Shown: positions 861-58,697 of the stretch, in pieces
Layout of the letters: each line of letters begins with the position of its first letter
How positions within the stretch are numbered: position 1 is the first letter of the stretch
Origin: a virus
Lineage: Duplodnaviria > Caudoviricetes
Virus record (IMG/VR): IMGVR_UViG_3300020576_006644
Span: 32,001 to 96,000 of that record
Direction: 5' to 3' (one strand)
DNA: 64,000 nucleotides
Notes under the pieces: model-generated
What the model was told of the DNA's origin: nothing
The model's input: the letters and a program-made list of their open reading frames with translations, nothing else
Database searches by the model: none
Translations under genes and position numbers: made by a program

Positions 861-954
861 AGTAGTTCTCCTTTTCGCGTGTCTCGCAGATGATTCCGCT
901 GCTTGGAGAACTACTAGTGCTTTTGCGTGCTGCGGCGCAATCCCTGACGTTTGT

Positions 955-1623
955 TCAGGGTGTTTGATCGTACGTGCTGATGTATGACACAGGCCCGGTG
1001 GCCGGAGATGTGACAACCGTAGCCGCGTACACATCCCCCATCTGCACGTACTTGAACGCCGTGCAGATGCCGCCCATGGGTGTGCGGTAGTAGACGGTCG
1101 CCCCGGCGGCGGGCTTTGTCGATATGCTCCCGCGCGTGTAGTAGCGGCCGTCCCCGCCGATGAACTTGGCGAGGCCCCCGGACAGCGGGTTCATGGACAA
1201 GCCGTCGTCGCCACTGGTCAAGATCACCCGCGGGATCGTGCAGGACGAGTCGGTGAAGAAGACCTGATAGGCCTTGGGGGCGCAGTGGCCGGCGGCGAGC
1301 GTGCAGTAGAAGCCCCGGCAGGCGTCAAACCAAGTGTCGTTGAAGCCGCCGGCGCGCACCGTCCCGTCGGAGAAAAGCAGCCACTGCTGCCGGAGACACA
1401 CCCCGTTTCGCGGCTGCTGCAGCGGGATCTGGGTGGGGATCAGGTCCGGCGGCGGGGTGAGGTCGGCCAGCGCCAGGTCTCGGCCGGCGAGGTCGATGGA
1501 GGTGATGAGCGGGTGGACGCCGACCGCGGCGGCGCGGGCGCGGATGGCCGGCGAGTCTTCGCGGTGGCAGCCGACAAGGGCGGCGAGCAGCGGCAGGGCC
1601 AGGAGCAGGTGCGGGGTCTTCAT
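955..1623 (-). CDS. Lipoprotein, probable paralog of 156..860
   Basis: MKTPHLLLALPLLAALVGC lipobox; DLAGRDLALADLTPPPDL linker; Cys-rich body. Confidence 0.75.
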   Translation of the reverse strand: MKTPHLLLALPLLAALVGCHREDSPAIRARAAAVGVHPLITSIDLAGRDLALADLTPPPDLIPTQIPLQQPRNGVCLRQQWLLFSDGTVRAGGFNDTWFDACRGFYCTLAAGHCAPKAYQVFFTDSSCTIPRVILTSGDDGLSMNPLSGGLAKFIGGDGRYYTRGSISTKPAAGATVYYRTPMGGICTAFKYVQMGDVYAATVVTSPATGPVSYISTYDQTP

Positions 1624-1658
1624 GAGGGTCTCCTTAAAGTGGCTGTAGGATACACAGC

Positions 1659-2468
1659 ATGCCCACCGCCTCCATTCTGGTCAACGCGCTGGCGACCCCG
1701 CGGGCGGTGCCGGTCAACTCCGTCGTCACCCTGTCCGAGGCTGCCGGTGGGTGGCTGAGCTACAACTGGACTCTGCTGGACCAGCCCGAGGGGGCGGCGG
1801 ACGCGCTGGTGGGCCCGACCACGGCCACCCCGACCATCACCCCCAAGAAGGAGGGAACCTACCTCATCCTCTTGGTGGTGAACGCCGGGACCAACACCGA
1901 GCAGCGGGTGATGGCTGTCTTCTACGTGCTGCGGCTGCTCGACGGGCGCCGCAACCCCGCCGCCGGCGAGACGCTTGAGCAGAACATGGTCCGCGGGTGG
2001 GCGGAGAACGTCAACCAGCAGCTCACCGACATATCGGACCTGCGCAAGGACGCCGGGCGCCAGGCCGGGGTCATCAACTTCAACGGCTCGGCGGCCAACA
2101 GCTCGGTCCTGTATGTCGCCGGGACCCAGCAGCTGCTCGCCACGCTCCCCGGCTCGTTCTACCTGCCGACCATGGGCAAGGCACTCGCGAACTCCGCCGC
2201 CACCCTGCACGGGGACCTGTACCTGCTCGACCGCGGGGTCATAAACCTCACGGCGCCGGTGGCAGGCGAGGTGATCTGGGCCCGCATCCACGGGGTGGCT
2301 TACAACGTGCCTATAGGCGGCACCACCTTCGGGGACCCCATCTACCTCTCCAACACCGGGCTCCTCGACACCGCTCCCGGCGCCACCTCCAGGCAGGTCG
2401 GCATCGTGGTGCAGGCGCGCCTTGGGGACTGCGACGTGGAGTTCGACGGTCACAGGCAGGGGTTCTGA
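1659..2468 (+). CDS. Putative virion structural protein (Ig/PKD-like N-terminus)
   Basis: SYNWTLLDQPEG...PKKEGTYLILLVVN resembles a PKD/Ig-like strand pattern; Gly/Thr-rich C-terminus. Confidence 0.55.
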   Translation: MPTASILVNALATPRAVPVNSVVTLSEAAGGWLSYNWTLLDQPEGAADALVGPTTATPTITPKKEGTYLILLVVNAGTNTEQRVMAVFYVLRLLDGRRNPAAGETLEQNMVRGWAENVNQQLTDISDLRKDAGRQAGVINFNGSAANSSVLYVAGTQQLLATLPGSFYLPTMGKALANSAATLHGDLYLLDRGVINLTAPVAGEVIWARIHGVAYNVPIGGTTFGDPIYLSNTGLLDTAPGATSRQVGIVVQARLGDCDVEFDGHRQGF

Positions 2469-2890
2469 TGCCCATCTTCCGCCGCATCGCTGTGCTGCAG
2501 CGCGCCAGCGCCCACCTGCCGCTGAACGCCCCTCCCGACCCGCGCCGCACCATCGAGGTCCGGGCTGGGGAGGACAGCGATTTCTACTTCGAGTTGCTCG
2601 ATGATGGCGGCACCCCGGTGCAGACCGTCACCGGCGACGCCGTGCAGATCACCGTACGACCGACCCCCACCGTCGACGATGAGCGCGTCTTTCGCATCGA
2701 CCTTGCCCCGGCACCGCTGGAGGGCCCCAACATCTGGCACCTGCTCCTGGCCGCCGAGCTGACCCGTCGGAAGTCGACGGAATTTACCCGCGGCTTCTAC
2801 GCTCTCACCCGCATAGCCAGCGACGGGAGACGCGACTACATCATCGAGACGAGCCCCTTCCGCCTCTTCGGTTCGCCCGGGGCCCGCTAG
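2468..2890 (+). CDS. Putative structural protein (BppU N-terminal-like)
   Basis: ATG overlaps the upstream TGA; IEVRAGEDSDFYFELLDDGGTPV...AVQITVR pattern. Confidence 0.5.
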   Translation: MPIFRRIAVLQRASAHLPLNAPPDPRRTIEVRAGEDSDFYFELLDDGGTPVQTVTGDAVQITVRPTPTVDDERVFRIDLAPAPLEGPNIWHLLLAAELTRRKSTEFTRGFYALTRIASDGRRDYIIETSPFRLFGSPGAR

Positions 2891-3420: not shown

Positions 3421-3474
3421 GAGCCCAGAGGATGCGATGCGCAGGCTGTAGGGTCAACGTGCGCGTGAGATGGC

Positions 3475-4419
3475 TTACCCGCGCGTGGTGCCCAGCGCCG
3501 CAGCCACGCGGCCCGGATCTACCATCTGCAGGAGCAGAGAGATTTTGTCAGTCACGGTCATTCCGCTAGAGAACTCTCGGGCCACCTCGGGGAAGTAGTC
3601 GATGCACAGCGCCACGAGATCTGAATCCCTGACCTGCTCAAGTCGCCTGCGAAGGGCAGGGCGGTCCAACCTAGCTATCGGGGCTGGCACCGGCGAAGGA
3701 TTGTCACCCGCGGGCTGCGCAAACGCCTCAGCCACGGGCTCAATAAAAAGCCGCTCAGCCGCAGCCGCCTTCTCGACGTGGCTTGCTTGCGCAAAGCTGG
3801 CCTCCAGGCGCCGCCACTGCACCGACACCTCGGGCTCCGCCAGCTCCTTGGCCGCCCGCGCCGGGTCGCTGACCGCGTAGGCTGGGATCAGGCTCCGCGG
3901 GCCGTGGGCCAGCCACAGGATGCGGCTGTTGCCGCGCTCCACCCAGATGCCGGACCAGTCAGCCCCGGTCACACCGTCGACCAGCTTGCCGTCATAGTCG
4001 TCGAGCACGTTCCCGGTGATCTGACACCGGGGCAGCTTAGCGGTCGACGAGGAGATGGCGGCCGGCTGCACCACCAAAAGCCCCTTCCAGGTCGAGCGCT
4101 GGGCGGGCCGCTCCTTGAGGTCCTTGACGAGCGCCCGCGTCTCCGCCAGATCCGGCTGGCCGTTGCGCAGGACCACCCACGGCATCCCGCGGACGATCCG
4201 GCTCACCGCTGCGCGGGCGTCGGAGTCACCGGCCAGTGCCCGCTCCACCTCGTCGGCCTTGGCACCGCCGCCCTTGCACTCGGCGATGATGGTGGCGGCG
4301 CGCCCGATGGGGATGCCGAGCGCCTCCCCCAGGTCCTTGGCGCCGACGTGCGCCGCGCCCTCCGGGGTCCAGCCCTGCTTCTCCCACGCCTCTTTCTCTT
4401 TTTCGTTCAGGTCGAGCAT
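3475..4419 (-). CDS. Hypothetical protein with C-terminal effector-associated-domain (EAD)-like module
   Basis: C-terminal LRRRLEQVRDSDLVALCIDYFPEVAREFSSGMTVTDKISLLL. Confidence 0.55.
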   Translation of the reverse strand: MLDLNEKEKEAWEKQGWTPEGAAHVGAKDLGEALGIPIGRAATIIAECKGGGAKADEVERALAGDSDARAAVSRIVRGMPWVVLRNGQPDLAETRALVKDLKERPAQRSTWKGLLVVQPAAISSSTAKLPRCQITGNVLDDYDGKLVDGVTGADWSGIWVERGNSRILWLAHGPRSLIPAYAVSDPARAAKELAEPEVSVQWRRLEASFAQASHVEKAAAAERLFIEPVAEAFAQPAGDNPSPVPAPIARLDRPALRRRLEQVRDSDLVALCIDYFPEVAREFSSGMTVTDKISLLLQMVDPGRVAAALGTTRG

Positions 4420-4576
4420 CTGTGATCTCCTTGTGTGCGTTCAATAAAACCCTTGGATTGGAGCGCCATGCCATACCCGGCCAAGCCTCGCCGGGCCGTA
4501 CGTAACCCAACAGCAGCCCACCTCAACGATCTCTACCTACGCCGGGTGCAAGTAGCGCGCAATACCAGACGTTTGT

Positions 4577-5074
4577 TCAGCGCGGAGCACGCTCCCCGAC
4601 CTCATCGACGGTCCACCGCGGGGCCTTGAGCGAACTGCCCTTAGCAAGGCGCACGATCAGAAACCTGTACGGGTGCATCTCGACGGCGATCTTGAGCTTC
4701 GCCCAGCTGTCGTCGCGGAGGAAACCCTTGACCTCGTGAAATTCGATGATACCAGCGACGGTGACGACCCTAAAATCGGGGACGTAGAACGTGGAGTCGG
4801 CGAGTCGCAGGTGCTCAGGGTGTGCGTCTACGCGCCGAAACTCGCCGATGCGCTGCCGCGCCTTCAGGTGCTCAAAGTACGCGGCCTCGGTCTTGTTCAG
4901 CTTCGAGGGGCGCTCGTAGGCGATCACAGGGGGCGCCTGCATGATCTCAGCGAGCGGTGCCGGCTCCTGCTTTCGCTGGGTAGGGCAGGGGCTGTGGACC
5001 GCCGCTCCGCTCAGCATCACCGTGCTGTCCCCGGTCTTGAACGGCTGACCGCACAGCCCGCAATGCGTGTTCAC
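4577..5074 (-). CDS. PD-(D/E)xK nuclease (DUF1064-like)
   Basis: YVPDFRV...FHEVKG catalytic signature; N-terminal CxxC...HxxC. Confidence 0.75.
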   Translation of the reverse strand: MNTHCGLCGQPFKTGDSTVMLSGAAVHSPCPTQRKQEPAPLAEIMQAPPVIAYERPSKLNKTEAAYFEHLKARQRIGEFRRVDAHPEHLRLADSTFYVPDFRVVTVAGIIEFHEVKGFLRDDSWAKLKIAVEMHPYRFLIVRLAKGSSLKAPRWTVDEVGERAPR

Positions 5075-11517: not shown

Positions 11518-12150
11518 CTAGACGGGGCCCTCATCCTCGGCGTTGCCGCCGAGTCCTGTTGTAATCGTCCGCTGTGACGGCGCGCGGGTGTCCGGAGGGG
11601 CGAAGCCGCTGAAGCGCGGGTCAGCCGGCAGCAGCTGCTCCTGCCGCACCCCGCCACTCGGCCAGCTGCGCCCGAGCTGCGCCAGCCGCACCGTGGGGTC
11701 CAGGTTCTGCAGCTCCTGCCGCGTGTTCCGGGCGGACTCGGCCACCATGTCGGCCTCGGTGCAGACGGCGCGGTAGTCCGCCCGCAGGGCCTCGTAGCGG
11801 GCCTCCGCCATGGCCTCCTGCATCACCGCGGCATCCCGGCGCGGGGCCAGCACCTCGTCGGTCCGCATGAGCGCCTGCACCTGCGCCTCGGTCGGAGGCT
11901 TGGGGTCCTTGAGGTTACCCTTGGCATCCTTGACCGGCTCCGCCCCCTCCTCCAGCTGCAGCCGGGCGGCCTGGTAGAGGAACGCCTCCTCCTTCTCCCG
12001 GTGTTCCTTGGCGGCGGCAAACAGGAACTGCGCCTCGGCGAGCTGGCGCCCGACCTCACTTATGCGAGCCGGCACAGACATGAGGGCGGCGCCGATCTGG
12101 GTGTGGTCGAGCCACTGCGGCGCGGGCGGGAGCTGGGGGGTCTGGCTCAT
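11518..12150 (-). CDS. UvsY-like recombination mediator (helical)
   Basis: Long amphipathic helices with KPPTEAQVQALM motif; adjacent to SSB. Confidence 0.5.
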   Translation of the reverse strand: MSQTPQLPPAPQWLDHTQIGAALMSVPARISEVGRQLAEAQFLFAAAKEHREKEEAFLYQAARLQLEEGAEPVKDAKGNLKDPKPPTEAQVQALMRTDEVLAPRRDAAVMQEAMAEARYEALRADYRAVCTEADMVAESARNTRQELQNLDPTVRLAQLGRSWPSGGVRQEQLLPADPRFSGFAPPDTRAPSQRTITTGLGGNAEDEGPV

Positions 12151-12215
12151 CTGCGGTCTCCTTGTGTGAGCTGTACCTAGAGGGTTTTCAAAATCCTGCA
12201 ATCCTGGACGTTCGT

Positions 12216-15020
12216 TCAGGCCGTGAGCAGCCCCATCCGGCCCCGCCGCGGGTCGCGGCGAGCCTCCAGCAGCCCCAGCTTCTTAGACTCGGCGAGCGCC
12301 GCCGCCAGGGTCTCGGGGGGCTTGTACTTCTTGGCAAGACCAAGGTTCGGACCGGCCTTGCAGTCGGCCTGCAGCGGGAACACGCGACCGTCCGGCAGCC
12401 GCCCAATCTCCCAGCTGGTCATCACGTCCTCGGTCATCCGCGCCGCCAGCGGGAGGATGGACTTGTGAACGACCGATATGATGGAGTCGTATATGCAGAT
12501 AACGGGGCGCCAGAGGTGCTGCAGATTCTCCCGCAGGATGTACTCAGTAATCTTCGCGTGCGACGCAAGAACCAGCAGCCCAGAATAGCTTCCTTGCACA
12601 ACTGTGTTGAAAACACCGTTCTCCGCCTTGCGCCTCTGCCGGTTATCCCGCGAGTCCAGGTTCCACAGCGGGCGCTTCTGCGCTACGCGCCCCTTCCAGA
12701 TGTTGTAGGTGTATCCGGTACGCCTCGCCCGCTCCAGCATCTCCCGCTTCTTCGCGTTCACCCTCGGGTAGCGACTCTCAATGGAGTCGAAGATGATCTT
12801 CCCCTCTTCCGGCGGCAGCTTGAGTCTCGTCGCAAAGGTGAAGTCGGTCCCCCCGTACGGAATCATGAAGTTGCCGACCTTTGCCTGTCGCCGCGGGATG
12901 CGCTTGCCGGCTTTCTCTAATACGAAGTCGATAGTCCCCTGGTGGATATCCCGGCCGTTCACATAGGCGTCAATCAAGACCGGCTCATCGCACAAAACGG
13001 CCATCCCGCGCATCTCTATCTGGCTGAGGTCCGTCTCCTTTATGAGGTAGTCCTCTGGGGCGGCGATGCAGGCGCGGATGCGGCGGCTCTCCTCGTCGGT
13101 TCCATACCAGTCGCAGGCGGCGCAGCCCTTCCCGTGGCACTCGTCGCAGTCCTCGGGGGACTTGAGCGAAAACAGGTTCGGCCGCACGCACGCTGGCCTT
13201 CCGGTCTCCGCCCCGTCGAGGAGATAGGACGGGTGGACGCAGTTGTCGGCGCGCAGGTAGGTGAGAAACTCCTCCCCCTTCTCAAGGGGCACGTCCTGCG
13301 CCGTAAACGACTGGTACAGCGCCGCGCAGGGGTGGAGGTGCGCGATGGCGTCGACCGCCTCCTTATCCAGGGCGTCTTTATTGTGCTTGGTCTTCTTAGG
13401 GACCGGGAGCCCCAGGCCGCCAAGCTCGCGCGGGGTGTAGAAGAACCGGGCCACTTGGTCGCGGCTGCCGAAGTCCAGCTTCTCGAACTCCGGGGTGAGG
13501 TGCGCCCGCAGCTGCGGCTCGATCTGCGCCTTACACGATTTGGCGTAGCCGATGAGTCCCTCGATCGCCGGCCGCGCCATGGGGACCCCCCAATGCTCGC
13601 TGCGGGCGTAGCTGCGGCTCGCCGGTCCCGTCACCTCTTCGTAAAGGAGATCCAGGCCCGGGTCCGCCACGATCTGCGGCCAGAGCAGCTCGTCGAGAAG
13701 CCCCGTAGCCACGCAGTCGCGGGCGTTGTAGAGCGAGAGGCGGTGCCGCGGGACCAGGGCGTAGCGGTAGCTGTCCTCCCCGTCGTCGATGAGGCGGTTA
13801 TCCTTGGAGTCGTAAATCTCCCGCAGCTTCTTGCGGGCGTAGGGGTCGGGGCAGTCGTCAAAGAGCGCCAGCTGGGTAGGCTTCCAGGCCCTGACCTGCT
13901 TCTTGACCGCCTCCAGCTCTCCGGCGAACTCGTCCTTGTAGCCACCCATCCCCACCATCTCGCTCATGGTGTCGAGGTTGGCCTTGGGGACGGCGCAGTC
14001 GAGCAGCTTCCGCGGCAGCCGCACGTCGCGGCGGTCCCCGGCGATCGGGGTCCCGAAATAGCACATGGCGGCCCGCTCATCGTAACTCCCCTGCTCGATG
14101 AACAGCATGGCCGGGTCGCGCAGCAGGCCTACCATCTCGGCCTGCATTTCCGGCTTCTCGCAGGCGGGGCGGTCCCACACGAACGCCTCGTTGCTGCCCC
14201 GCACGCATGCCGCCGCCGAGATGACCCGGAAGTCGTCGTCGTGCAGCTTCCCGCGACTCTCCACGTCCCAGGAGACGCCGCGGCGCTCCATCCGGCCGCC
14301 GACATCGACGAGTGATAGGCTGCCCTCGTGCAGCACCCGTGCCGCCTCTGCGGCTTCCTCCGCGCTGGCGATGACCGAGTAGGTCCCCGCCTCAAGGAAC
14401 TTGAGCCGCTCCTCGAAGAAGCTGTCCGACGTCGTCAGCGCCCACGCAAGATCGGTCTCCCACGCGGCCCTGGCGTGCCGGCCGTCGAGCTGCGCCGGGT
14501 TCATGAGGATCAGCGCCGGCACCCGCCCGTGGGGCAGGCGCACCCAGGCAAAGCCCCGGCGGACCGAGCGGGTGGATACGGCCCGCCCCAGCACCCCCCA
14601 GCACGCCAGCTCCCCGAGCAGCAAGATGCGAGACGGGGCGATCTGTTCGGCGTAGCTGCGCAGGTACGGCCTGCACGAGGCCGCGTGCTTCGGCTCCGCC
14701 CGGTCCTCCCCGTCCGGCCCCGGGTAGCAGCCCACCGCGTAGGCGCTAGCCACCGGCCCCGTCCAGTGCTTGCGCACCGACCGCAGGAGGTTCGCCCCGC
14801 GGGGACCGTCGGCGATGACCTTCCCGGTGATGTTCTCCAGCTGGCTCGGGTGCGAGCCGACCGTGAGGAGACCCCCCGCTTCCCCGGCCGGCGGCAGGCA
14901 GCGGTTTGTCGTCCGCTCCCCGAGCTGGCAGCGGCTGCACTGCGGATTTCGCCGCAGCGGGCCGGCGAGGTCCAGCGCCTGCGGCGGCAGCCCGGTGGGG
15001 AACAGCGGAAGGGTCTTCAC
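12216..15020 (-). CDS. polA: Family A DNA polymerase with N-terminal UDG-like domain and 3'-5' exonuclease
   Basis: CSRCQL...C...CRPYL family-4 UDG-like; ExoI WDVES, ExoIII YNARD; motif A DLSQIEMR, motif B RRQAKVGNFMIPYG, motif C IYDS. Confidence 0.93.
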   Translation of the reverse strand: MKTLPLFPTGLPPQALDLAGPLRRNPQCSRCQLGERTTNRCLPPAGEAGGLLTVGSHPSQLENITGKVIADGPRGANLLRSVRKHWTGPVASAYAVGCYPGPDGEDRAEPKHAASCRPYLRSYAEQIAPSRILLLGELACWGVLGRAVSTRSVRRGFAWVRLPHGRVPALILMNPAQLDGRHARAAWETDLAWALTTSDSFFEERLKFLEAGTYSVIASAEEAAEAARVLHEGSLSLVDVGGRMERRGVSWDVESRGKLHDDDFRVISAAACVRGSNEAFVWDRPACEKPEMQAEMVGLLRDPAMLFIEQGSYDERAAMCYFGTPIAGDRRDVRLPRKLLDCAVPKANLDTMSEMVGMGGYKDEFAGELEAVKKQVRAWKPTQLALFDDCPDPYARKKLREIYDSKDNRLIDDGEDSYRYALVPRHRLSLYNARDCVATGLLDELLWPQIVADPGLDLLYEEVTGPASRSYARSEHWGVPMARPAIEGLIGYAKSCKAQIEPQLRAHLTPEFEKLDFGSRDQVARFFYTPRELGGLGLPVPKKTKHNKDALDKEAVDAIAHLHPCAALYQSFTAQDVPLEKGEEFLTYLRADNCVHPSYLLDGAETGRPACVRPNLFSLKSPEDCDECHGKGCAACDWYGTDEESRRIRACIAAPEDYLIKETDLSQIEMRGMAVLCDEPVLIDAYVNGRDIHQGTIDFVLEKAGKRIPRRQAKVGNFMIPYGGTDFTFATRLKLPPEEGKIIFDSIESRYPRVNAKKREMLERARRTGYTYNIWKGRVAQKRPLWNLDSRDNRQRRKAENGVFNTVVQGSYSGLLVLASHAKITEYILRENLQHLWRPVICIYDSIISVVHKSILPLAARMTEDVMTSWEIGRLPDGRVFPLQADCKAGPNLGLAKKYKPPETLAAALAESKKLGLLEARRDPRRGRMGLLTA

Positions 15021-16547: not shown

Positions 16548-16619
16548 GTTCTAGTCCTCCTGTTTGTTTAACCGTTCCCTATGTTTTCAGGGCTGCAGTT
16601 CGCAATCCCTGACGTTTGT

Positions 16620-17519
16620 TCAGTGCTTCGCCGCCTCACGAGCCGCCTCGAAGAGGCGGTCGGGGTCTATCTCGTCTGGGTCCGTCCCGCCCGGCAGCCG
16701 CAGGGCCGAGAATCTTCCGCTGCCGCCCTGACACAGGGACAGCATGCGGAGCTGCTGGGCAAGCCCCCAGCCGGCCAGCCACGCATCTCCGTCCAGCGCG
16801 AAGACGACTGGGCGCCGGGCCTCCAGCAGCATGAGCTGTTGTTCCGAGCTCGGCATACCTAGCGCGCCAGCGGCGTCCCCGCGGTCCATGAGGAACATCG
16901 CGTCCATGGACCCCTCGACGATGACCAGCGGCTCCTCGGTCTCCCGGTGCAGGTGCTCCCCGCCGAAAAGGAGTAAGCCCCTTTGCAGTCCGGTACTATA
17001 AAGGTAAGGAAGCGGGTGCTTCTTCTGCCAGCTCCTGCCGATGAAGCCGAGAAGCTGTCCGTCCGGCGCCCGCAGCGGGATGATCACCCGCCCGTACCAC
17101 TTGCTCCCAGGTACCAACACCGCCCCGATCCCGTACCGGCGGCGCTTGGGTTCGTCTATCCCGCGCCGGTTGAGGAACGCCCGCGCCTCCGCGCCGTTCC
17201 GTGATGACTTCCCCGGCTCCTCGTCGAGCAGGTAGAAGCCGGCAGGCAGCTCGGTAGACTCCTTCGCCCCGTCGTCCGCTAGGTGGTCGAGCTGCCTCCG
17301 CACCGGATCGTCGATGAGGTCGAGATAGCCAGCGGCCCGCCCGCGCAGCCCGCAGCGCTTGCAGTGATAGAAGCCGGTGGGGGAGTGGAAACTCCAGCTT
17401 TTTTTGGTGTCTGTCTTGCCCGCTCGCTCGGGGCAGGCCAGACAATTAGCGCGCAGCCAACGCGAGTTTCCGCTGGCCTTAGCGTCTGCAACCATTGAGG
17501 CGACGAGGGGGTGGCTCAT
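16620..17519 (-). CDS. DnaG-type primase (zinc finger + TOPRIM)
   Basis: CLAC...CKRC zinc finger; GRVIIP...GFIGR; IVEGSMDA; ALDGD; DPDE. Confidence 0.88.
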   Translation of the reverse strand: MSHPLVASMVADAKASGNSRWLRANCLACPERAGKTDTKKSWSFHSPTGFYHCKRCGLRGRAAGYLDLIDDPVRRQLDHLADDGAKESTELPAGFYLLDEEPGKSSRNGAEARAFLNRRGIDEPKRRRYGIGAVLVPGSKWYGRVIIPLRAPDGQLLGFIGRSWQKKHPLPYLYSTGLQRGLLLFGGEHLHRETEEPLVIVEGSMDAMFLMDRGDAAGALGMPSSEQQLMLLEARRPVVFALDGDAWLAGWGLAQQLRMLSLCQGGSGRFSALRLPGGTDPDEIDPDRLFEAAREAAKH

Positions 17520-23419: not shown

Positions 23420-23476
23420 CGAGTTCCAGCTATCTCATCCGATCGCCACGACCCGCAAGCCGGGACGTTTGTTCAG

Positions 23477-27390: not shown

Positions 27391-27454
27391 GGTTTGTCCC
27401 TCCTGGGGAAGATCTGCTCAGATCACGGTCGGGCTGGCAATACTGGACGTTCGG

Positions 27455-27991
27455 TCAGGCCTGACTGTTCGGCGGGGCCCATACCAAGGCGAAAGAGTCA
27501 AGTGCCTGCGCCTGCCTGTCGGTGGTCTTACCTGCGCAGGCTGAGTGCATCCGATAAAAGGCGCAGCGCACACGGATAGCAGGATCATGTGGGGTGACGG
27601 ACACAGTACGAACAGGCTTATCGCGCAACGGCAATGCGCACACCGGACACGCGCCGTCTAATCCCGGTTCATGGGTCGGAACTTCCTGATCAGGGCAGTC
27701 AAAATAGCCGATACTCGGCTCGACCTTGTAGGGTTTGGTCAAAAGGATCGAGGTCAGCACGTAACCTTTGCCGTTTTGCTCCAAGCCCCAACTCAAGCTG
27801 TCGTTGTCGAGCACTACTTCAGTGTAGTGTCCGCACTCATCGGCTTTAATGCGGTCAGTCCTGGTGCCCGACCACCACCGCCCGCGAGCACGCCAGAAGA
27901 CGTACTCACTGTTCGCCACCGCCCGTAAATGGTCCTCTATTTTGTGCTGCCTTTTGGGTCCGAAATAATTCTCCACATACGCGCAAGCCAT
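27455..27991 (-). CDS. Hypothetical protein
   Basis: 178-aa ORF, lower GC, CPVC...HSAC. Confidence 0.55.
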   Translation of the reverse strand: MACAYVENYFGPKRQHKIEDHLRAVANSEYVFWRARGRWWSGTRTDRIKADECGHYTEVVLDNDSLSWGLEQNGKGYVLTSILLTKPYKVEPSIGYFDCPDQEVPTHEPGLDGACPVCALPLRDKPVRTVSVTPHDPAIRVRCAFYRMHSACAGKTTDRQAQALDSFALVWAPPNSQA

Positions 27992-32301: not shown

Positions 32302-32861
32302 GTTCACGATCTCCACGTTCAAAGGTTGAGCACCCACCAAATCTGATTACCCACCCGATCGCAATCCTGAACATCCACCCAGCCGAGCCGTTCCCACAGG
32401 TACGACCACGGGTACAAAAATCCTGGTCAAACTAAAATCTCCGACGGAACTACCGGAAAAGAAGTCACACACTAAACGGGGGTGGTGGGTGGTATCTAGG
32501 GGGACTAGGGCGGGCAAGGGGCCGGAGGCGCGGCGGGCAGCCGGCAGGGCGTTTTAAGGGCTGCAGAGCCCGGTGGCCGAGTTTTAGGGTGTCTGGGTCT
32601 CCGGTTTTTGTGTCTCGCCTTACATTTTGGACTCCTGTCCCCTGCGGTTTGGGGCTCTAACCACCCTGCCGGCTGCACCCCAACCACCACCTCGTCCCGT
32701 TTAGTAGGGTGACTTCTTTTTGGATGTCCCCGTCGGTGAGTTTTGCGTGACCACGATCTTTTGTGTGTCTGGGTGGGTTTGTGTCCAATCTGGGTAAGCT
32801 GGGATGCTGACCAAACGTCCAGGATTGCCTTGGCTGATCGGGCGGCTGTAGCGTCCAGCTC
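32302..32861. other. Non-coding divergent strand-switch region (origin/terminus or control region candidate)
   Basis: ~560 bp without a credible ORF; G/T-skewed tracts; SOS-like boxes at both ends. Confidence 0.5.
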
Positions 32862-35023: not shown

Positions 35024-36394
35024 ATGCTCAGAAAAACTTTGGCACCCCAGGTCGTTCTGCTCTGTGGCCTCGGGTTCGGCGACGAGGGGAAGGGTACGAC
35101 GGTGGATTTTTTGACCGAGCAGCTCGGAGCACACACCGTCGTTCGCTATAACGGCGGCCCACAGGCGGCGCACACCGTCGTGGAGAAGGGCCGGCACCAC
35201 GTCTTTGCGCAGTTCGGCTCAGGGACGCTGCTGGGTGCACGGACCTACCTCAGCAGCCACATGCTGGTTTGCCCGTTCCGCCTGCAGTCTGAGGCCGCCG
35301 CGCTGGACGCGATCGGCATCCGTCGGTCCCTCGACATGGTGGCGATCGACCGGGCGGCGCCGCTGGTGACGCCGGTGCACAAACTGGCCTGCCAGGTGCG
35401 GGAGCTGGCGCGCCAGGACCGGCATGGCTCCTGCGGGATGGGCATCTGGGAGACAACGCGGATCGCTCGGCAGAACCCCAAGATCGCCCCGCGGGTTGGG
35501 GACTTGGAGGACATCGACCTTCTCATGGAGAAGATTGAAGCCCTGCGCCTGGAGATGCTGTACGACGTGTGCGACGACGTGGTGGCAGCAAGGGAGACGC
35601 CCCGGCACGCCGCAGCTCAGAAGGTCTATCAGGAACTCGACGACCTGGACCTGCCCGCGCTGCGCCAGCGATACGCGGAGATCGGTAAGGAAACCACCCT
35701 TGGAAAGTACGGCCTGGTCGACAGCGGGTACTTGGGTGATCGTCTCCAGTCTGGCACCACGATCTTCGAAGGGGCACAGGGTGTGTTGCTCGACGAGACG
35801 TGGGGATTCCACCCGCACACGACGGGCAGCACGACCACCTTCGCTAACGCCGAGGACATCCTGTCGGACCTGGGGTACGGCGGGGAAAAGTACCGGATCG
35901 GGGTTCTGCGCAGCTACATGACGCGGCATGGCCAGGGTCCGATGCCGACGGAGCTGCGCACCCTGGCGTCCGAGGAGGTCCACAACAAGACGACCCCATG
36001 GGCAGGGGACTTCAGGCACGGGATACTCGATTTGGTCCTCCTCCGCTACGCCATTTCCGTGGTCGGCGGTATCGACTCGCTGGCGCTCACCCACGCGGAC
36101 CGCTGGTCGAAATACGGGACCGCCTGCGTGTCGTACTCCCCGGTGTCGCAGCGCTATTTCCAGCTCGGCGGTGCGCTGTTGCGCCGGTCGGAGTGCCCAG
36201 ACCTCGGTTACCAAGAGGGGCTGGGTCGTGCGGTCGCGGCTGCCCATCCGGTGTGCAAGTCGGGAGATCTCATCGAGATCGTCGAGGATCAGCTGCAGGT
36301 CGATGTTTCCGTCTTGTCGAGCGGCCCTGGGCGCGGCGACAAGTGCTGGCTGAACAAACGCGCCGGATTGCCGGCCGCGGCTGCCTGCGGGTAA
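35024..36394 (+). CDS. Divergent adenylosuccinate synthetase-like (PurA family) protein
   Basis: GFGDEGKG, RYNGGPQAAHT, FEGAQGVLLD, HPHTT, TRHGQGPMPTE; substrate loop and TKLD motif divergent. Confidence 0.88.
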   Translation: MLRKTLAPQVVLLCGLGFGDEGKGTTVDFLTEQLGAHTVVRYNGGPQAAHTVVEKGRHHVFAQFGSGTLLGARTYLSSHMLVCPFRLQSEAAALDAIGIRRSLDMVAIDRAAPLVTPVHKLACQVRELARQDRHGSCGMGIWETTRIARQNPKIAPRVGDLEDIDLLMEKIEALRLEMLYDVCDDVVAARETPRHAAAQKVYQELDDLDLPALRQRYAEIGKETTLGKYGLVDSGYLGDRLQSGTTIFEGAQGVLLDETWGFHPHTTGSTTTFANAEDILSDLGYGGEKYRIGVLRSYMTRHGQGPMPTELRTLASEEVHNKTTPWAGDFRHGILDLVLLRYAISVVGGIDSLALTHADRWSKYGTACVSYSPVSQRYFQLGGALLRRSECPDLGYQEGLGRAVAAAHPVCKSGDLIEIVEDQLQVDVSVLSSGPGRGDKCWLNKRAGLPAAAACG

Positions 36395-40519: not shown

Positions 40520-40687
40520 GTTGGGCTCCTTTTGGGTGATCGCTTCCTCAAGGGTTTGTTGACGATCACAAGCACAACACGGGTGCTGCCGAGCTGGCAA
40601 TGCTGAATGTGGGAGCAGCGCTTGACGCACGTTCAGTATTGCGGCGAGGGCGGAGATCTGGGCGAATGGTGGGAAAGGAGAAATTGT

Positions 40688-43312: not shown

Positions 43313-43361
43313 GCACCGACGTAAGCACCATCGGCGGGGGAGGGCAAGCCTGAACGTGCGG

Positions 43362-43916
43362 TCAGGGCAGCGTAGCCTTGAGCCAGTCAAGCACGCGGCT
43401 GGCCCGGTGGTAGTGCGGCGAGGTCGGGTCCTCGTAGTACATGATGATGTCGGCCATCTTCTCGATGTCTTCGCGCGGGAGCGGCGGCACCGCTTTGTCG
43501 GTGAGCCGGTAGCCGCAGCTCTTGTACCGCCCGCCGGCCTTCTCGATGTAGCCGTGGTGGGTGAGGACCTTGATGTGGTCGTTGACCCCGTTGGTAGAGC
43601 GGGCACCGAGGGCTGCGCCCAGGTCGCGCAGGGTCGGGGGTTTGCCGCCGCTCTGCCGCGTGAGCTCGATGATCTTGCGGAGGTAGATGGCGGCCCTCGG
43701 CGCCAGATCCGGGTAGGCGGGGTCAGGACTGACCGAATCCCGTCGCGGGTGCCACGTTTTGGCCGCTTCGGGGACCGGGCACCAGGCGTACAGTGTCTGT
43801 GTGGTGACGCCGAGCTGGCGGGCGGCGGCGCAGTAGTTGCCGTACTTCTTGCGGATCCCCTCGTAGCCGAGCGCTGTCGTCTCGGCCCGCATCGGGTGGT
43901 GCTTGTACTTGTTCAT
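43362..43916 (-). CDS. HTH + LexA N-terminal DNA-binding domain protein lacking the S24 autoprotease domain
   Basis: NYCAAARQLGVTTQTLYAW HTH; GKPPTLRDLGAALGARSTNGVNDHIKVLTHHGYIEK resembles myxobacterial LexA DBD; no Ser-Lys peptidase domain. Confidence 0.82.
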   Translation of the reverse strand: MNKYKHHPMRAETTALGYEGIRKKYGNYCAAARQLGVTTQTLYAWCPVPEAAKTWHPRRDSVSPDPAYPDLAPRAAIYLRKIIELTRQSGGKPPTLRDLGAALGARSTNGVNDHIKVLTHHGYIEKAGGRYKSCGYRLTDKAVPPLPREDIEKMADIIMYYEDPTSPHYHRASRVLDWLKATLP

Positions 43917-44009
43917 GCTCGGCAACATGCCCGCAGCCGCCGCCGGGGGCAATCAGGAACGTATGTTCAGGATTGCAATCTCAAGCCGGGCCAAGTTTCA
44001 ATGCGGCGT

Positions 44010-45645: not shown

Positions 45646-46056
45646 ATGTCGAACAAGACCGCGACGATGACCTTCCAGCTCACCTACGTCGGCCCCGACG
45701 GCGACCAGGTGGTGATGCCCCAGCGAGCCATCCAGTCGAGCTACCAGGCCCAGGAGCACGGCTCCATCGACATCCCCGACGCCACGGCTGCCGCCACCGT
45801 CTACAACGTCCCCTTCGGCGGGATCACCGTGGACGCCGAGGCGGGCCTCATCGAGAACCGGACCGGGCAGCCGCTGGAGGTGAAGATCAACGGCGCCGCA
45901 GCGACCAGCCAGACCATTCCGAACGGGGGCGTGTTCGCCTGGGCCAATCCCGTGGCGAGCGGCGGCACCCCGATCCTAGCTATCTCGCTCAAGACCACGG
46001 CGATGCAGGCCGGGGTCGGCTACATCAACTATCACCTGTTCGGGGACCCGACTTAA
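45646..46056 (+). CDS. Putative virion structural protein
   Basis: Beta-rich Ala/Thr/Gly composition; GAGGAG RBS. Confidence 0.55.
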   Translation: MSNKTATMTFQLTYVGPDGDQVVMPQRAIQSSYQAQEHGSIDIPDATAAATVYNVPFGGITVDAEAGLIENRTGQPLEVKINGAAATSQTIPNGGVFAWANPVASGGTPILAISLKTTAMQAGVGYINYHLFGDPT

Positions 46057-46904: not shown

Positions 46905-46984
46905 GGGGGCGATCTCCTTGTTTGGTGAGCAAGGAGATCGTGTAGGAGGGTGGGGTCGGCTGTCCAGACTGGACGTTTGGTCAG

Positions 46985-47497: not shown

Positions 47498-47650
47498 GTG
47501 AAACCTCTTATTTACGTTGTTTTGAGCTGCGAAAGTGCGGCTCTCGTGTGTGGGGGAAGTTAGACCTTGCGGTTTGCGGTGGCAAGGGCAAACCACTGAA
47601 CGAACGTCAGGTATTTACTTTGGGTGGCTGGTGGTGTTTGAGTCTTAGCC

Positions 47651-52525: not shown

Positions 52526-52588
52526 CGCAATCCTAGACGTTCGTTCAGGGTTGACAGGATGACGTTCGGTGTGGCCTATTCGAGCGAC

Positions 52589-53035: not shown

Positions 53036-53092
53036 TCGCTGCGCGCACGTTCAGGATTGCCTACCGACACGATCTAGGGTTTACGTGTTTCT

Positions 53093-53199: not shown

Positions 53200-53212
53200 C
53201 TAAAAGGAGGTT

Positions 53213-55980
53213 GTGATGAAGATTGATGAGATCAAAGTAGGCGATGTCCTTGTCCCGCGGCGTTGGCGCGAGGACGACTCTAGCGATCTTGTTTTCCTCG
53301 ACGCGATGGGCGAGTTCTGTGACAAGCCGCAGGTAGTGCGCGAGGTCGACAGGTGGGACGACACGATCAGCTTCGAGGGGTGCATCGTTGAGGGTTTGCA
53401 CGCTTGGTGGCCGGTCAGCTTCGTCGAAAGGGTGCGCAGCTCCCCGGCCCAGCGCCTTGCGCGTATCCAGGCGGCGGTAGGTCGTCTCGCCGCTACTGCC
53501 TCCGGCCCCGACCGGCTGCTGCAGCTCCAGCGCAGGATGGTGCGGGCGACCAAGGCGGCTGCGGATCTGGTCGTTGAGGAAGTCGCCAAGATGGGTTAGT
53601 CGTGACCGCTCGCATCATTGCTGTAGCGCTGTTCGGCGCGCTGCTCGGGTGGAACATCTCCCTTGAGCTGCGGCTGCGGGAGGTCGAGGCGGTGATCAAC
53701 GTCCCGCTGCGGGCGCTCACCTCGGTGCCCGCGGTGCTGCGAAAGCTGGTGAAGCCGTGAGGATTGCTGAGGCTGAAATACGCATTACGGAAAAACAGCG
53801 GCACCCTTTTTACATGGGAGAAGCCCGGCCTTTTGGCGAGGAATATCCAGATTCCGAACCGTGCGAGGTCATCCTCAAGATCCGTGGGACTGTCGCCGAG
53901 TGCATGACCCTGTTTCAGATGCGCGGGCAGGACATCAACCCGCCGACTCGTGCCGCCGCACCCAAGGACCGGCAGCCTCCCGAGCAGGGCGAGCCGGAGG
54001 TGGTGGCTTGCGTGGTCGAGCAGCCCAAGGCGCTGCCGCCCAGGAGGGGAAAGTGATCACCGTCGAACACGAGCCACCCGACTTGGCCGAACTGCACATC
54101 CAAGAGCGGTGCTGCTTCTGCCGGGAGTTCACTCGGTATTGGGTCGTCAACATGGACGTTGCCTGCTGCCAGCGCTGCGCCCGTTACGCCGATCCGACCG
54201 ATGTTCCTTCTAAGGAGGTGTGGTGCCGGCGGGAGCGGATCGCCACGGCGGAGGACCGGCCGAGCGGCTGTAGGGGCCCCGTCATCCCAAAGCCACCGCT
54301 GGGGAAGCTGCTGAAGTGGTGCATGAAGTGCCAGCAAAGGCCCTGCATCGGTGACGGCTGCGCCGAGCGCTACCGGCTCTTGGCCCGCTTCGGTGTTCTG
54401 CACGCCTATGCTGATCGCAGCGACATCGAGGAACGAGAGGTCCACGCCCTGCAGGCGCAGCTGGCCGCCGTGGGAGTCGACACCGGGTGGGAGATCGCGC
54501 CCAGGAGGAAGAAGTGAAGCGCGAGATCAAGCTGGGTCAAATCGGCGGTGTCCCCATTTACGCCGACCTCTGGCATCTCTTGACTGGTGCCGTAGTTGTC
54601 GGCCTCGGGCTATTGGCGATGTGGTGCTTGCCGGCCAACGCCGGACTTGGGGCTCGTTTTGCTGTCCGCACCATAACGATCGCTGCGATCTGTTTTGCTG
54701 CGAGGGATAAGTGAGCGCAGAGCACCTCCACTCCTGCCCCCGCTGCCTCGGTGTCGAGAGCTGCGCCTCGCCGACCTGCCTCATGCGGGCCGACCTGTCA
54801 GATATTGAACACTTCGGCGACCCGCGCCGCTGCGCGCCCTGCCGCCGCGCCGGCCGCAGCTTCACGGCTGCCGAGGTAGCAGCAGCTGCTGGGTGCCGCT
54901 CTGCGGACGCAGCGGCTGCGGCCAAGCGCGGGGACGTTGACCTCGGGTCGCTGTCGTCGGTCGCCAAGTGGATCGAGCAGCGCCGCGCCGAGCTCGGGAG
55001 CTACGTAACCGGCGGGCTGCAGGCAGCGCTTCGGGAGCTGCGGCTCGCTGGCGGCTGCGCCCAGGATCTGGGGTTCGGGGTCTTTATGTGGCTCCCGCAG
55101 GGCGGTGGCTATCTCTATGCCGGGGAGCTGGCCGGTCCACTCAAGGAGCTGGCGCTGTCCAAGTCCCGCAGCGTTGTCCGGCTGCCGCTGCCGCCGTTCA
55201 GCGGGCTACTCACCGAGCTGTGGCGCCGGTGCGAGACCGGGCCCGGTTATGACGCGGAGTCGGCCGCGCTTCGGCGGCGCTTGGGGGAGGTCATCGGCCA
55301 CGACGATCCGGTGCTGTGCCGCTTGCAGGTAAGGGCGGCGAGGAGAAAGTCTTGAGCAAGATATCGTTTATGTACCTTGGGATGGCTACTTACGCTCTTT
55401 TGACAGCAGCCACCACGACAACTGTAAACCCGTTTTTGGAAGTGTGTGTAGCTGTGGCGTTAATCATCGTAGCCTTTGCGCTGCGTAAGAAGGATGAGTA
55501 GAGAATGGATGAAGATCTTGACGAACTGGTTTTAGCCGCCCGCAAAAAGCGAGCCGCGACGCGCGAGAGTATCATCCCGAACGCTGATCGTTATATCGAG
55601 CAGCTCATGGACAGCGTACCCAAGGAGCCGGAGCCGAAAAGTCTCTTTGAGAAGGGACAGCGGGCGAAGTGGGCCGAGGTGCGCAGCCTCCCGGTCTACC
55701 GTAGCCGGGACTGAGCAAACTTTCAGGATTGCGCTGTAGATCGGTGTCGGGCTACACGATGATAATGAAAAACAAGCTGATCGCTTTGCTGTTAGTTTTA
55801 TGTGGCTGCCCGGAGCACGAGTACCAGTCTTCGGCTCCTGATTGCCGCGACACGGCGATCGCGATTCCCGCAAGCGGTGAAAAGGTGTCTTGCGAGCACG
55901 CTGAACAGGAGATGTCTGTGATCAAGGTAGACGGGCGGGAGTTTCTTCAGTGCATCTGCCGCCGTTACTACCGTCTTTAG
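53213..55980 (+). CDS. Cluster of small hypothetical genes (53213-53599, 53757-54056, 54053-54517, ~54514-54714, 54711-55355, ~55352-55501, 55505-55714, lipoprotein 55765-55980)
   Basis: Chain of overlapping ORFs; several Cys-rich or membrane; 55765 has MKNKLIALLLVLCGC lipobox. Confidence 0.55.
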
Positions 55981-56008
55981 AGTAAACAACCAACAAGGAG
56001 GACGAACG

Positions 56009-57031: not shown

Positions 57032-57054
57032 TCCCCCTACAATTTGCGCACACC

Positions 57055-57309
57055 GTGCGCACCTTCAGCCTCCTCCCCCCTAAAACGAATCCCCGGTCCG
57101 TCATCGCCGAGCACCGCGAGCGCGGGCCGCGCCGCTACCACTACACCGCGGCGCTTGTCGCCGAGCTGGCCGGGGCGCCGCTGTCCGCTGTCCGCCGCGC
57201 CGCCGCCAAGGTCCCCGGCCGCGAGCCGCTGCTCGACTTGCGGTCGCTGCGCAGCGTCATTGCCTGGGTCTCCCGGCAGCGGGCATGCCGCGGGCTTGGT
57301 GCGCTGTGA
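57055..57309 (+). CDS. Small HTH-like protein
   Basis: YTAALVAELAGAPLSAVRRAA...LDLRSLRSVIAWV; similar segments in 52589 and 54711 ORFs. Confidence 0.5.
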   Translation: MRTFSLLPPKTNPRSVIAEHRERGPRRYHYTAALVAELAGAPLSAVRRAAAKVPGREPLLDLRSLRSVIAWVSRQRACRGLGAL

Positions 57310-58376
57310 CCGCCAGCAAGCGAGACCAGCGGGAGGAGCGGACCTTCGACAGGGCCGTGGAGCTGCTCGACACCTACCCAGGCGACTTCCCCGAGGTCAG
57401 GCGGCAGCTGCAGGCCGAGGTGCAGCGCATGCGAGGGAAGGCCGGCGAAGATCTCGACATCACCAGCGAGCAGCAGCTCAAGACTTGGTGGGAGCAGGGC
57501 CTTGTCCGCCAGGTCCGCCTGCGGGCCGTGGTCGCTCGCCCACCTATTAAGGAGACGATCGCCGACCGGCAGTTGACGGCCCGGGAGCGAACGAAGCAGC
57601 GAGTGCCGAGGACGTTCGACCGCGCTGCTGAGCTGCTCAAGCAGCAGCCAGGGCAGTTCGAGCGCGTGGCGGCGGCGCTCGGCGGCGAGCTCAAGGCCCG
57701 GGACCTGGAGCCGGTGGACGCCGAGCAGCTGCGAGCCTGGTGGGCGCGCGGGCTGCAGGAGCCGGACGGTGATGGGGGCTTCAGGCAGGTCCGGCCGCCT
57801 ATCAGCGACGAGGTGCAGAACCACATCGCCCTGCGCGAGGAGCAGGCGGACGCCGAGGCGCAGACCCTGCGGCGGCGGCTGAAGGCCGACGCGGCGCTCA
57901 ACGGGCTCAAGGCCATCGGCGTCCTGGCCATGGAGCAGGAGCAGATCCGGCGGCTGCGGGCGGAGATGACCGGCGCCGGCAACAAGGGGGTGGGTCTGGA
58001 CAAGGTGGCCCTGGCCCTCATGCGCGGCATCGCCGACGACCTGGAGGATGCGGAGCTCAGCCCCGAGAAGAAGTACGACTGGCTCATGCGAATACTCAAG
58101 CTGCAGCAGGCCCTCATGGCGGCGCAATCGAGCGTCATCACCACCGAGGCCCTCATCGGTGGCGGCGACCGGACCATGATCCTCGGTCTGTCGGTGGGCG
58201 GGATGCCGGTCGGCGGCGGCAAGGACGCCTCAAGCACAGGCAGCGACGGGGAGGCGATCTCCAGCGCGGACCTGCGGCAGCGGGCGCTGGAGGTGGCCAG
58301 CTACATGGAGGACCTGGACCGGCTGTCGCAGGGTATCGAGTCGGCGATCGAGGCGGAGGTGGCGGCGGAAGGCTAG
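57306..58376 (+). CDS. Possible terminase small subunit-like protein with tandem N-terminal repeat
   Basis: Duplicated RTFDRAxELL...QLxxWWxxGL unit, helical oligomerisation region, Gly-rich tail. Confidence 0.4.
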   Translation: MTASKRDQREERTFDRAVELLDTYPGDFPEVRRQLQAEVQRMRGKAGEDLDITSEQQLKTWWEQGLVRQVRLRAVVARPPIKETIADRQLTARERTKQRVPRTFDRAAELLKQQPGQFERVAAALGGELKARDLEPVDAEQLRAWWARGLQEPDGDGGFRQVRPPISDEVQNHIALREEQADAEAQTLRRRLKADAALNGLKAIGVLAMEQEQIRRLRAEMTGAGNKGVGLDKVALALMRGIADDLEDAELSPEKKYDWLMRILKLQQALMAAQSSVITTEALIGGGDRTMILGLSVGGMPVGGGKDASSTGSDGEAISSADLRQRALEVASYMEDLDRLSQGIESAIEAEVAAEG

Positions 58377-58594
58377 TTCTCGAAACCGAGCGCCTTGCGG
58401 ATCTTGCGCTTTGTGGACTCGGGCGGGGTCGGCTTACCCTTGTCCCAGCTGGCCTTGGTCCCGACCGGAGATCCTTTCGGGGCCGCTTCGATCTCGATGT
58501 ACTGCTTCTTGGCCTTGTCTTCGTTGGGTTTCTCCGCATGGACCAGAGGTAGGAGGGAAAGCAGGAGTGCGTAGACGATGATCGTTTTTTGCAT
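58373..58594 (-). CDS. Small secreted protein
   Basis: MQKTIIVYALLLSLLPLVHA signal peptide; preceded by SOS-like box. Confidence 0.6.
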   Translation of the reverse strand: MQKTIIVYALLLSLLPLVHAEKPNEDKAKKQYIEIEAAPKGSPVGTKASWDKGKPTPPESTKRKIRKALGFEN

Positions 58595-58697
58595 GGTGTG
58601 ATCCTTTCGCAAAATACATCACCCGATCTGCGTGCTGCTGGCAATCCTGAACATCCGTCTTTAGGCCGCCGGGGCGGCGCCGCCCTATCCTCGTGGC

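Follow-up and report, generated by a model that had tools for sequence, protein, structure and literature searches.

The stretch analysed here (the window, 64,000 nucleotides) comprises bases 32001-96000 of the 112,623-bp IMG/VR record IMGVR_UViG_3300020576_006644, the genome of an uncultured phage of the Caudoviricetes with a G+C content of 65%. The analysis concerns a 22-mer that recurs at gene boundaries of this genome and consists of a 16-bp LexA-like box followed after 2 nt by TTGC, together with the gene of a truncated LexA homologue that carries such boxes at both ends. Encoded by the genome are DNA polymerase I, RecQ and other helicases, RNA ligase, PurA, a DnaJ-kinase fusion and a methyltransferase; the terminase, portal and baseplate genes are located outside the window. 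The "terminal repeat" of the record is only 77 bp long and was therefore regarded as an assembly overlap of a circular or permuted genome. No tyrosine recombinase or serine recombinase (integrases), ParA, S24 repressor or lysogeny module was found in the genome, nor a sigma-70 region 2, i.e. no sigma factor, and the genes present are those of a large phage of the lytic type. A T7-type RNA polymerase was not found either, but this carries no information, as the control genomes gave no match as well. Among cultured phages, there was no close DNA match to the genome and no protein match to the LexA homologue. For the DNA polymerase, distant relatives only were found.

Recurrence of the 22-mer and geometry of its promoters

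A position weight matrix (PWM) was iterated from a seed pattern and run over the whole record, with ten mononucleotide shuffles as controls. The scan resulted in 34 sites above 12 bits, of which 30 exceeded 20 bits and 26 exceeded 24 bits, as compared to 0-2 sites above 12 bits in each shuffled genome. The window holds 19 of the 30 sites above 20 bits. The original prediction, which was made from the window alone and counted about 17 copies, is thus borne out, and its first and last coordinates (937 and 58662) match the scan exactly. The CTGAAC ends of the 19 sites are at positions 958, 4580, 12219, 16623, 23476, 27458, 32382, 32807, 36350, 40621, 43365, 43955, 43970, 46984, 47596, 52548, 53039, 55711 and 58662.

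The consensus of the phage sites is CTGAAC-(G/A)N-ACGT-(T/C)C-(A/G)G-GA-TTGC, with a near-invariant distal half (CTGAAC) and central ACGT and a variable proximal half. The pattern CTGAAC-N4-GTTCAG with up to 2 mismatches was observed 14 times (2.2 expected). When the 16-bp core alone was used as query, 29 boxes were obtained (shuffles 0-2), and in 25 of these TTGC, or TTGT, TTAC or TTTA, follows exactly 2 nt downstream.

The 22-mer sites are intergenic, lie at gene boundaries and are co-oriented with the next gene. In the arrangement termed class A here, the 16-bp box is followed after 2 nt by TTGC as a putative weak -35 element, which gives about 25 early/middle-type promoters. A peak of TA dinucleotides was found 17-18 nt after TTGCnn; the -10 element is weak and usually lacks the final T. 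The distances from motif to start codon form two groups, either an ATG at 31-33 nt without a Shine-Dalgarno sequence (SD), or an SD and an ATG at 45-57 nt. At least eight genes belong to the former, leaderless group, including those of the DnaJ-kinase, the RNA ligase and the LexA-domain protein and a gene for a 318-aa protein 33 nt past the box at genome position 97004 (outside the window). From geometry alone, this would agree with a layout of sigma-70/SigA type (elements 16-19 nt apart), in which the leaderless mRNAs begin about 7 nt past a -10 element placed 17-18 nt from TTGCnn. The reading of TTGC as -35 element in the original prediction agrees with both the TA peak and the leaderless ATG spacing, and the boxes were likewise confirmed at the heads of early/middle-type operons. 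Readings of the motif as an ECF-sigma or sigma-54 promoter were ruled out by spacing, as reasoned from the sequence.

The centre of the class A box lies at about -46 (-45.5 counted from the -35 element, -47.5 counted from the leaderless ATGs). With their ends 2 nt short of the -35 element, these boxes (25 of 29) do not, strictly speaking, overlap the core promoter elements, as an operator from which a bound repressor excludes RNA polymerase would. Canonical promoters of the type TTGACn-N16-18-TAnnnT occur only twice in the 112.6 kb. Judged by this geometry, the 22-mers are composite promoter-operators, in which a weak TTGC -35 element is joined to a putative LexA-type operator lying 2 bp further upstream.

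A second geometry (class B) is new here and was absent from the original prediction. In the plus-strand structural module outside the window, minus-oriented boxes were found at genome positions 4373, 10164, 21612, 25010, 27392, 29770, 101597 and 110179, with a looser one at 1848. On the other face of these boxes, 1-14 nt (mostly 10) lead to TATCCT, TAGGAT or TAGGCT, and an ATG follows 6-9 nt later. The genes concerned code for the portal, the baseplate wedge and other structural proteins, and about nine leaderless late-gene promoters are formed in this way. Their -10 element is strong and of the type found at lexA promoters of the Myxococcota, the likely host phylum; a -35 element is missing because the box occupies about -38 to -23. 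Class B boxes thus lie over the -35/spacer region and overlap core promoter elements. The window node 58641-58698 is of this kind, and the portal node is conserved in two related phage fragments (G003 and G004, see below). As judged from these layouts, one and the same box can probably take part in two promoters, of class A on one strand and of class B on the opposite strand. No separate late-promoter motif was revealed by a genome-wide 9-mer count.

In a third arrangement the box abuts TAGTCT, as at Myxococcota lexA promoters. It occurs twice, in a 132-bp repeat of two low-GC islands.

The sites of the window and the genes linked to them are as follows.

937..958, minus: class A, 33.0 bits, ahead of gene 156-860
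4559..4580, minus: class A, 30.8 bits, TATTGC, ahead of gene 3475-4419
12198..12219, minus: class A, best site, 35.9 bits, at the 3' end of the DNA polymerase I gene
11518-12150 plus SSB-like gene, minus: operon of the 12198..12219 site, SD and ATG 47 nt downstream of the box
16602..16623, minus: class A, 33.0 bits, ahead of gene 15270-16547
23455..23476, minus: class A, 29.5 bits, upstream of the RecQ helicase gene 21684-23153
27437..27458, minus: class A, 31.5 bits, ahead of gene 27058-27390
32361..32382, minus: weaker class A, 23.3 bits, with a degenerate distal half, upstream of the methyltransferase gene 31543-32307
32807..32828, plus: class A, 32.7 bits, -10 element TAGCGT after an 18-nt spacer, leaderless ATG of the DnaJ-kinase gene (32862-33920) 33 nt downstream
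36350..36371, plus: class A, 24.9 bits, within the 3' end of purA, ahead of the small gene 36420-36587
40621..40642, plus: class A, 26.9 bits, overlapped by weak reverse sites (40597-40636) that face the POT transporter gene
43016-43312, minus: leaderless 98-aa open reading frame (ORF) between the LexA-domain gene and the helicase gene 41520-43019, ATG 31 nt after the 43344..43365 box
43344..43365, minus: class A, 27.7 bits, overlaps the stop codon of the LexA-domain gene, found letter for letter in metagenome contig L015
43362..43916, minus: gene of the truncated LexA homologue, 184 aa, no S24 domain
43949..43976, both strands: bidirectional node gcaatc-CTGAACATACGTTCCT-gattgc, conserved in L015
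minus side of 43949..43976: LexA-domain gene, leaderless, ATG 32 nt downstream
plus side of 43949..43976: RNA-ligase gene, ATG 33 nt downstream
46963..46984, minus: box lacking the neighbouring TTGC (22.4 bits for the box), 58 nt upstream of gene 46278-46904
47596..47617, plus: variant site with TATTTA for GATTGC, 27.2 bits, identical variant in L015, G003 and G004
52527..52554, both strands: bidirectional node, on the minus side GATTGC (33.3 bits) and a leaderless 67-aa ORF 31 nt downstream, on the plus side TTGACA at the same 2-nt gap
53039..53060, plus: class A, 27.5 bits
55711..55732, plus: class A, 30.9 bits, ATG 32 nt downstream opens a short ORF
58641..58698, both strands: two-faced node, on the minus side a weak class A promoter (21.8 bits) for gene 58373-58594
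plus side of 58641..58698: TATCCT at 58686-58691, 23 nt past the box, leaderless ATG at 58698 (gene 58698-59024)
62980..62995, plus: box-like palindrome CTGAAACTGCGTTCAG abutting a TAGTCT -10 element, inside the 132-bp repeat also present at genome 14.6 kb

At the 52527 site, the perfect TTGACA reported for the opposite flank in the original prediction was confirmed, with 2-nt spacing. The ORF after 55711..55732 starts with residues (MKNKLIALLL, as read) that are hydrophobic and signal-peptide-like by eye. The stop codon of the 98-aa ORF overlaps the helicase start, and its product has no family match.

Several further observations were made on these sites and their neighbours. GATC follows TTGCnn at a distance of 10 or 12 nt in 9 of the 44 promoters of the phage group, often as GATCGGGTGA or GATCTGGGCGAAT; examples in class A spacers of the window are at 40653-40656, 27422-27425 and 58626-58629. 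An enrichment of GATC in the spacer was unconfirmed by a k-mer test and positional clustering alone remains, which may mark a methylation site or a promoter subclass. The 132-bp repeat is inverted, 92% identical between its copies (window 62910-63040 and genome 14550-14690) and situated in two low-GC, GGG-free islands; it contains CTCAG-TTTT-CTGAG hairpins in addition to the box-like palindrome abutting TAGTCT. The gene at 32862-33920 (plus) codes for a DnaJ domain fused to a Ser/Thr protein kinase domain (352 aa), is apparently leaderless and heads an operon with PurA. Outside the window, a lower-GC gene of 132 aa with its own box promoter and SD (genome 1386-1781, minus) is inserted antiparallel between two structural genes. 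It looks like a moron-type insertion, since G003 carries a different gene at that place.

LexA-type operators and a LexA-domain protein

The SOS box of Myxococcus xanthus has the consensus CTRHAMRYBYGTTCAGS (PMC9705874). This pattern was matched with up to 2 mismatches by 21 of the 30 phage sites, and genome-wide with up to 1 mismatch at 11 places, as compared to 0 in shuffles. At the copy at 12204-12220, 16 of 17 positions fit, as had been predicted. A host PWM was built exclusively from 45 operators of Myxococcota lexA promoters and restricted to the 10 positions outside the CTGAAC anchor. With this matrix, the phage boxes (5.4 +/- 1.6 bits) reached the level of the host operators from which it had been built (5.0 +/- 2.3 bits), in contrast to -5.2 +/- 5.6 bits for the remaining CTGAAC 16-mers in the phage genome. 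This independent PWM does not tell a phage box from a host lexA operator. The assignment of the boxes to the Myxococcota LexA type therefore stands on both the consensus fits and the host-PWM scores, and for the same reasons host LexA is predicted to recognise the phage boxes.

Phage and host boxes have the 16-bp layout, the invariant GTTCAG half and the looser second half in common. They differ in their placement. Upstream of Myxococcota lexA genes, TTGACn is followed after 1-2 nt by a 16-bp box ending in GTTCAG and then by TAnnCT, so that the operator fills the spacer between TTGAC and TAnnCT. Class A phage boxes, in contrast, lie upstream of the -35 element, which is TTGC where the host has TTGAC, and class B boxes lie one helical turn upstream of the -10 element. 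Moreover, the phage boxes are more palindromic than those of the host. Direct repression by M. xanthus LexA is confined to a handful of genes (PMC9705874).

In the protein encoded at 43362-43916, a Cro-like helix-turn-helix (HTH, residues ~10-45) is followed by a LexA-type winged HTH (~73-133) and then by two tail helices (148-181). PF01726 (LexA_DNA_bind) is the sole family matched (E 3.2e-8, residues 86-129), and no other gene of the genome matches it. The winged HTH is central and not N-terminal, and a 45-aa two-helix tail takes the place of the protease at the C-terminus. The S24 peptidase domain (PF00717) was searched for and gave no match anywhere in the genome at E values up to 1. Without this domain, the phage protein does not qualify as a true LexA. 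Three parts were seen in an AlphaFold model (mean pLDDT 73), namely an N-terminal HTH of three helices, the winged helix and a tail of two helices; the best Foldseek matches of the winged helix were the E. coli LexA-DNA complexes 3JSP and 3JSO (rmsd 1.6 A over 69 columns). The N-terminal HTH gave sub-threshold matches only (best P22_Cro, E 0.01), and PHROG 362 ("transcriptional repressor") was matched weakly.

The Myxococcus lexA gene was retrieved by means of the published M. xanthus lexA promoter oligonucleotide (PMC9705874). Over the DNA-binding domain, the phage protein is 35-38% identical to Myxococcus LexA. The recognition helix RSTNGVNDH is unbroken and identical in both proteins, as is the longer phage helix RSTNGVNDHIK. 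The pattern STNGVNDH was found in at least 600 places of the genome collection, and the best 80 are almost all Myxococcota with a few other metagenome-assembled genomes (MAGs); because of the latter, the helix can be called typical of the Myxococcota, not proven exclusive. With a profile of the phage protein family, 337 of 401 Myxococcota genomes gave one LexA-like domain each, with scores of about 41-57 bits (E. coli LexA, 28-31 bits); this tally includes one unpublished genome (G200), on which no specific claim rests.

Myxococcota (myxobacteria) are likely to be the host, given the predicted recognition of the boxes by host LexA, the G+C content and the type of the -10 element. A search of bacterial genomes for the 22-mer yielded 14 matches, which is about the chance expectation; three of them are from Eremiobacterota and represent one homologous coding sequence, and hence carry no information on the host. 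Next to the site at 40621, an unusual auxiliary gene for a phage codes for a POT/MFS-type peptide transporter (39131-40519, minus, 462 aa, PF00854 at E 3e-42). Its bacterial homologues are distant (up to 45% identity) and taxonomically scattered, and do not point to a host.

Three IMG/VR fragments (G001, G003 and G004) represent relatives with 35-65% protein identity in structural genes, and carry 2, 5 and 3 copies of the 22-mer, respectively. In metagenome contig L015, the motif is present on both sides of the regulator gene, syntenic and letter for letter, together with further copies, and the regulator there is 58% identical to that of the phage. Inner positions of the box vary while the pattern is kept across these diverged phages. 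A search of viral contigs for the regulator protein gave no result. In six other viral contigs from IMG/VR (L217-L222, 63-69% GC), LexA domains are encoded that lack a protease, have the RSTNGVNDH helix and end in short helical tails; the flanks retrieved for them, up to 4 kb on each side, are free of CTGAAC boxes of 13 bits or more.

Candidate readers of the boxes

The closest precedent is GIL01, a tectivirus of Bacillus thuringiensis, which employs host LexA (with gp7) and gp6, a truncated LexA homologue (PMC6182141). There, gp6, the one truncated LexA homologue that has been studied, binds a palindrome centred at -43.5 and activates a late promoter, and host LexA represses the same promoter. 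The gp6 site differs in sequence from that of host LexA, and both proteins can bind together. GIL01 has three promoters, with gp6 acting at one of them, and persists as a linear plasmid prophage (PMC6182141).

On this background, the tentatively favoured explanation, held at somewhat less than even confidence, is that the boxes are shared by host LexA and the truncated LexA of the phage, with the phage protein as activator and host LexA as competing repressor. The boxes would be read by dimers of LexA-type winged-helix proteins, and an infected cell would contain two such proteins with the same recognition helix, i.e. the cleavable host LexA and the protease-less phage homologue. The latter would act as the dedicated regulator and activate the intrinsically weak box promoters, in the manner of gp6 at its single GIL01 promoter; host LexA, as repressor, would contend with it for the boxes and thereby tie the programme to the SOS state. 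The role of activator is assigned to the phage protein because of the weak core promoters, the fixed position of the box and the gp6 precedent. Weak cores and a rigidly placed box resemble activator-dependent phage promoters. The original prediction had noted that the position just upstream of -35 is also compatible with activation, and the fixed 2-nt position at weak cores indeed looks more like activation. The motif, the promoter geometry and the identity with host operators and with the host recognition helix are read from the sequence; which protein binds, and whether it turns a promoter on or off, is deduced from them.

Several observations weigh against this explanation. G003, a fragment that lacks two-thirds of its genome, retains the box, yet its LexA-domain protein, with two tandem winged helices, has different recognition helices, which argues that the conserved reader is host LexA. 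G002, an unrelated complete temperate phage of 46.7 kb with a tyrosine integrase, possesses neither an S24 domain nor a LexA-domain gene, and carries a single perfect intergenic 22-mer (L018:7836-8100) with a leaderless 69-aa ORF 33 nt downstream. Taken together, G003 and G002 suggest that the box unit could work with host proteins alone. The promoter of the regulator gene is itself a box promoter, so that a pure activator would need basal expression to start. The box centres at about -46 and about -30 are on different faces of the DNA helix, and activation by one protein from both would be unusual. Finally, the identity of the host is itself a deduction.

The G003 regulator (L016:1234-1959, minus; 242 aa) carries its two LexA-type winged helices as a single-chain pseudo-dimer, and its promoter is near-consensus (TTGACA-N17-AGAAAT) with a box 15 nt upstream. 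The G002 module may represent an antirepressor-type unit under LexA control. In the 401 Myxococcota genomes searched, one of its structural proteins, taken from G002, had no match.

The G003 and G002 observations favour the model of the original prediction, in which host LexA alone is the master repressor, the phage stays largely silent in undamaged cells and fires upon RecA-stimulated cleavage of LexA, and the phage protein is accessory. It is further in line with the scores of the phage boxes, which equal those of authentic Myxococcota lexA operators, with class B and island boxes that cover core elements as in host lexA promoters, and with GIL01, which keeps lysogeny via host LexA (PMC6182141). 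This model is nonetheless considered rather unlikely. A repressor needs no invariant 2-nt coupling to the -35 element at 25 promoters, the host box being placed in the spacer; the core promoters would be weak even when free; the missing integrase, serine recombinase, ParA and S24 repressor and the lytic-type gene content do not suit it; and the retention of an uncleavable protein with the same helix would be unexplained. Of the proposed SOS regulon, the Myxococcota LexA-type boxes hold; their reader may be host LexA or the phage protein with the same helix, and SOS induction may or may not be involved.

If the phage protein does read the boxes, it could also be a repressor, either for temporal shut-off or for C1/CI-like maintenance at about 30 operators, and would be insensitive to SOS without a cleavage domain. 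Boxes at both ends of its own gene would then provide an autoregulation typical of repressors, the overlap of boxes with core elements of class B and island promoters would suit repression, and the weak PHROG 362 match points in the same direction; many dispersed operators per repressor are known from P1 C1 and L5 gp71. Weak cores, class B promoters without -35 elements and few canonical promoters leave little to repress, however, and neither the fixed coupling upstream of the -35 element nor the failure to find a lysogeny module fits. This possibility is judged improbable.

The two-faced nodes, which join minus-strand early-type genes to plus-strand late genes, bear on a further possibility, namely that host LexA was co-opted as positive factor and timer that helps class A promoters and blocks class B promoters, until its loss by cleavage or titration flips the nodes to late expression. 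LexA would be the sole box-binding protein at time zero, and almost no box-free canonical promoters exist. Since LexA is rarely an activator and the role of the phage LexA-domain protein would be left unexplained, this version is very improbable. A broader form is given a little more credence, although it too is quite improbable: nearly all transcription would pass through one operator recognised by host LexA, and loss of LexA as the timer by cleavage, titration or replacement by the phage copy would flip about ten two-faced nodes to late expression. In that case, bound LexA would keep the early face of a node on and the late face blocked.

A second candidate transcription factor is the Xre-type regulator encoded at 38336-38665 (minus; 109 aa, HTH_31 at E 9e-9). 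The claim of the original prediction that no CI-type repressor is visible was too strong in view of this protein and of the Cro-like HTH in the LexA-domain protein; it holds insofar as no S24 repressor was found. The existence of this second small HTH protein would allow for another reader of the boxes, and the behaviour of the 22-mer as one unit would allow for a mere duplicated promoter cassette without operator function. Both are extremely improbable, as the boxes match LexA operators in detail, a LexA-type protein with a matching helix is encoded beside two boxes, and inner positions vary while the pattern holds across diverged phages. Another candidate regulator, the conserved small protein encoded at 45646-46056, was dismissed: no family match was obtained for it, and by eye the sequence looks beta-rich.

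Relation to known systems and biological meaning

With GIL01, the phage shares a phage-encoded LexA DNA-binding domain without S24 protease and a palindrome at or over the -35 element (centre at -43.5 in GIL01 and, as predicted, at about -46 here). Host LexA boxes on phage promoters and two LexA-family proteins acting on the same promoters are common features as well, as far as predicted here. The systems differ in scale, with gp6 at one of three promoters and about 30 boxes over most of a 113-kb genome here. The gp6 site is unlike that of LexA, whereas helix and box are of host type in the present phage, so that phage protein and host LexA should compete. Furthermore, the protein described here has an extra Cro-like HTH and a helical tail, and in contrast to the plasmid prophage GIL01, no lysogeny module was found.

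In T4 MotA middle promoters and with Mu Mor/C and lambda CII, a phage-encoded factor occupies a fixed place on or directly ahead of the -35 element. These promoters likewise lack a good -35 element and define a temporal gene class; the folds are unrelated, the motifs differ, and no host repressor operator is copied. Dispersed sets of one operator are known as the C1 operators of phage P1 and the gp71 stoperators of mycobacteriophage L5. Tens of oriented copies at gene boundaries across the genome are a common feature, but those serve dedicated repressors of temperate phages, with motifs of their own and no fixed coupling to the -35 element. A literature search revealed no published genome-wide array of the kind described here. 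The system would resemble the LexA/gp6 pair of GIL01, extended to a whole 113-kb genome, with the host specificity apparently copied and with two-faced nodes.

For this uncultured phage group, Myxococcota are indicated as the host by the recognition helix and the type of -10 element. If binding is confirmed, the array would represent a whole-genome version of the LexA/gp6 interplay of GIL01, in which a large phage has copied the host SOS operator along with the reading helix of the SOS repressor and runs most of its promoters through them. The two-faced nodes would link early and late genes through a single site, and the system would offer a tractable case of a phage capturing the specificity of a host regulator.

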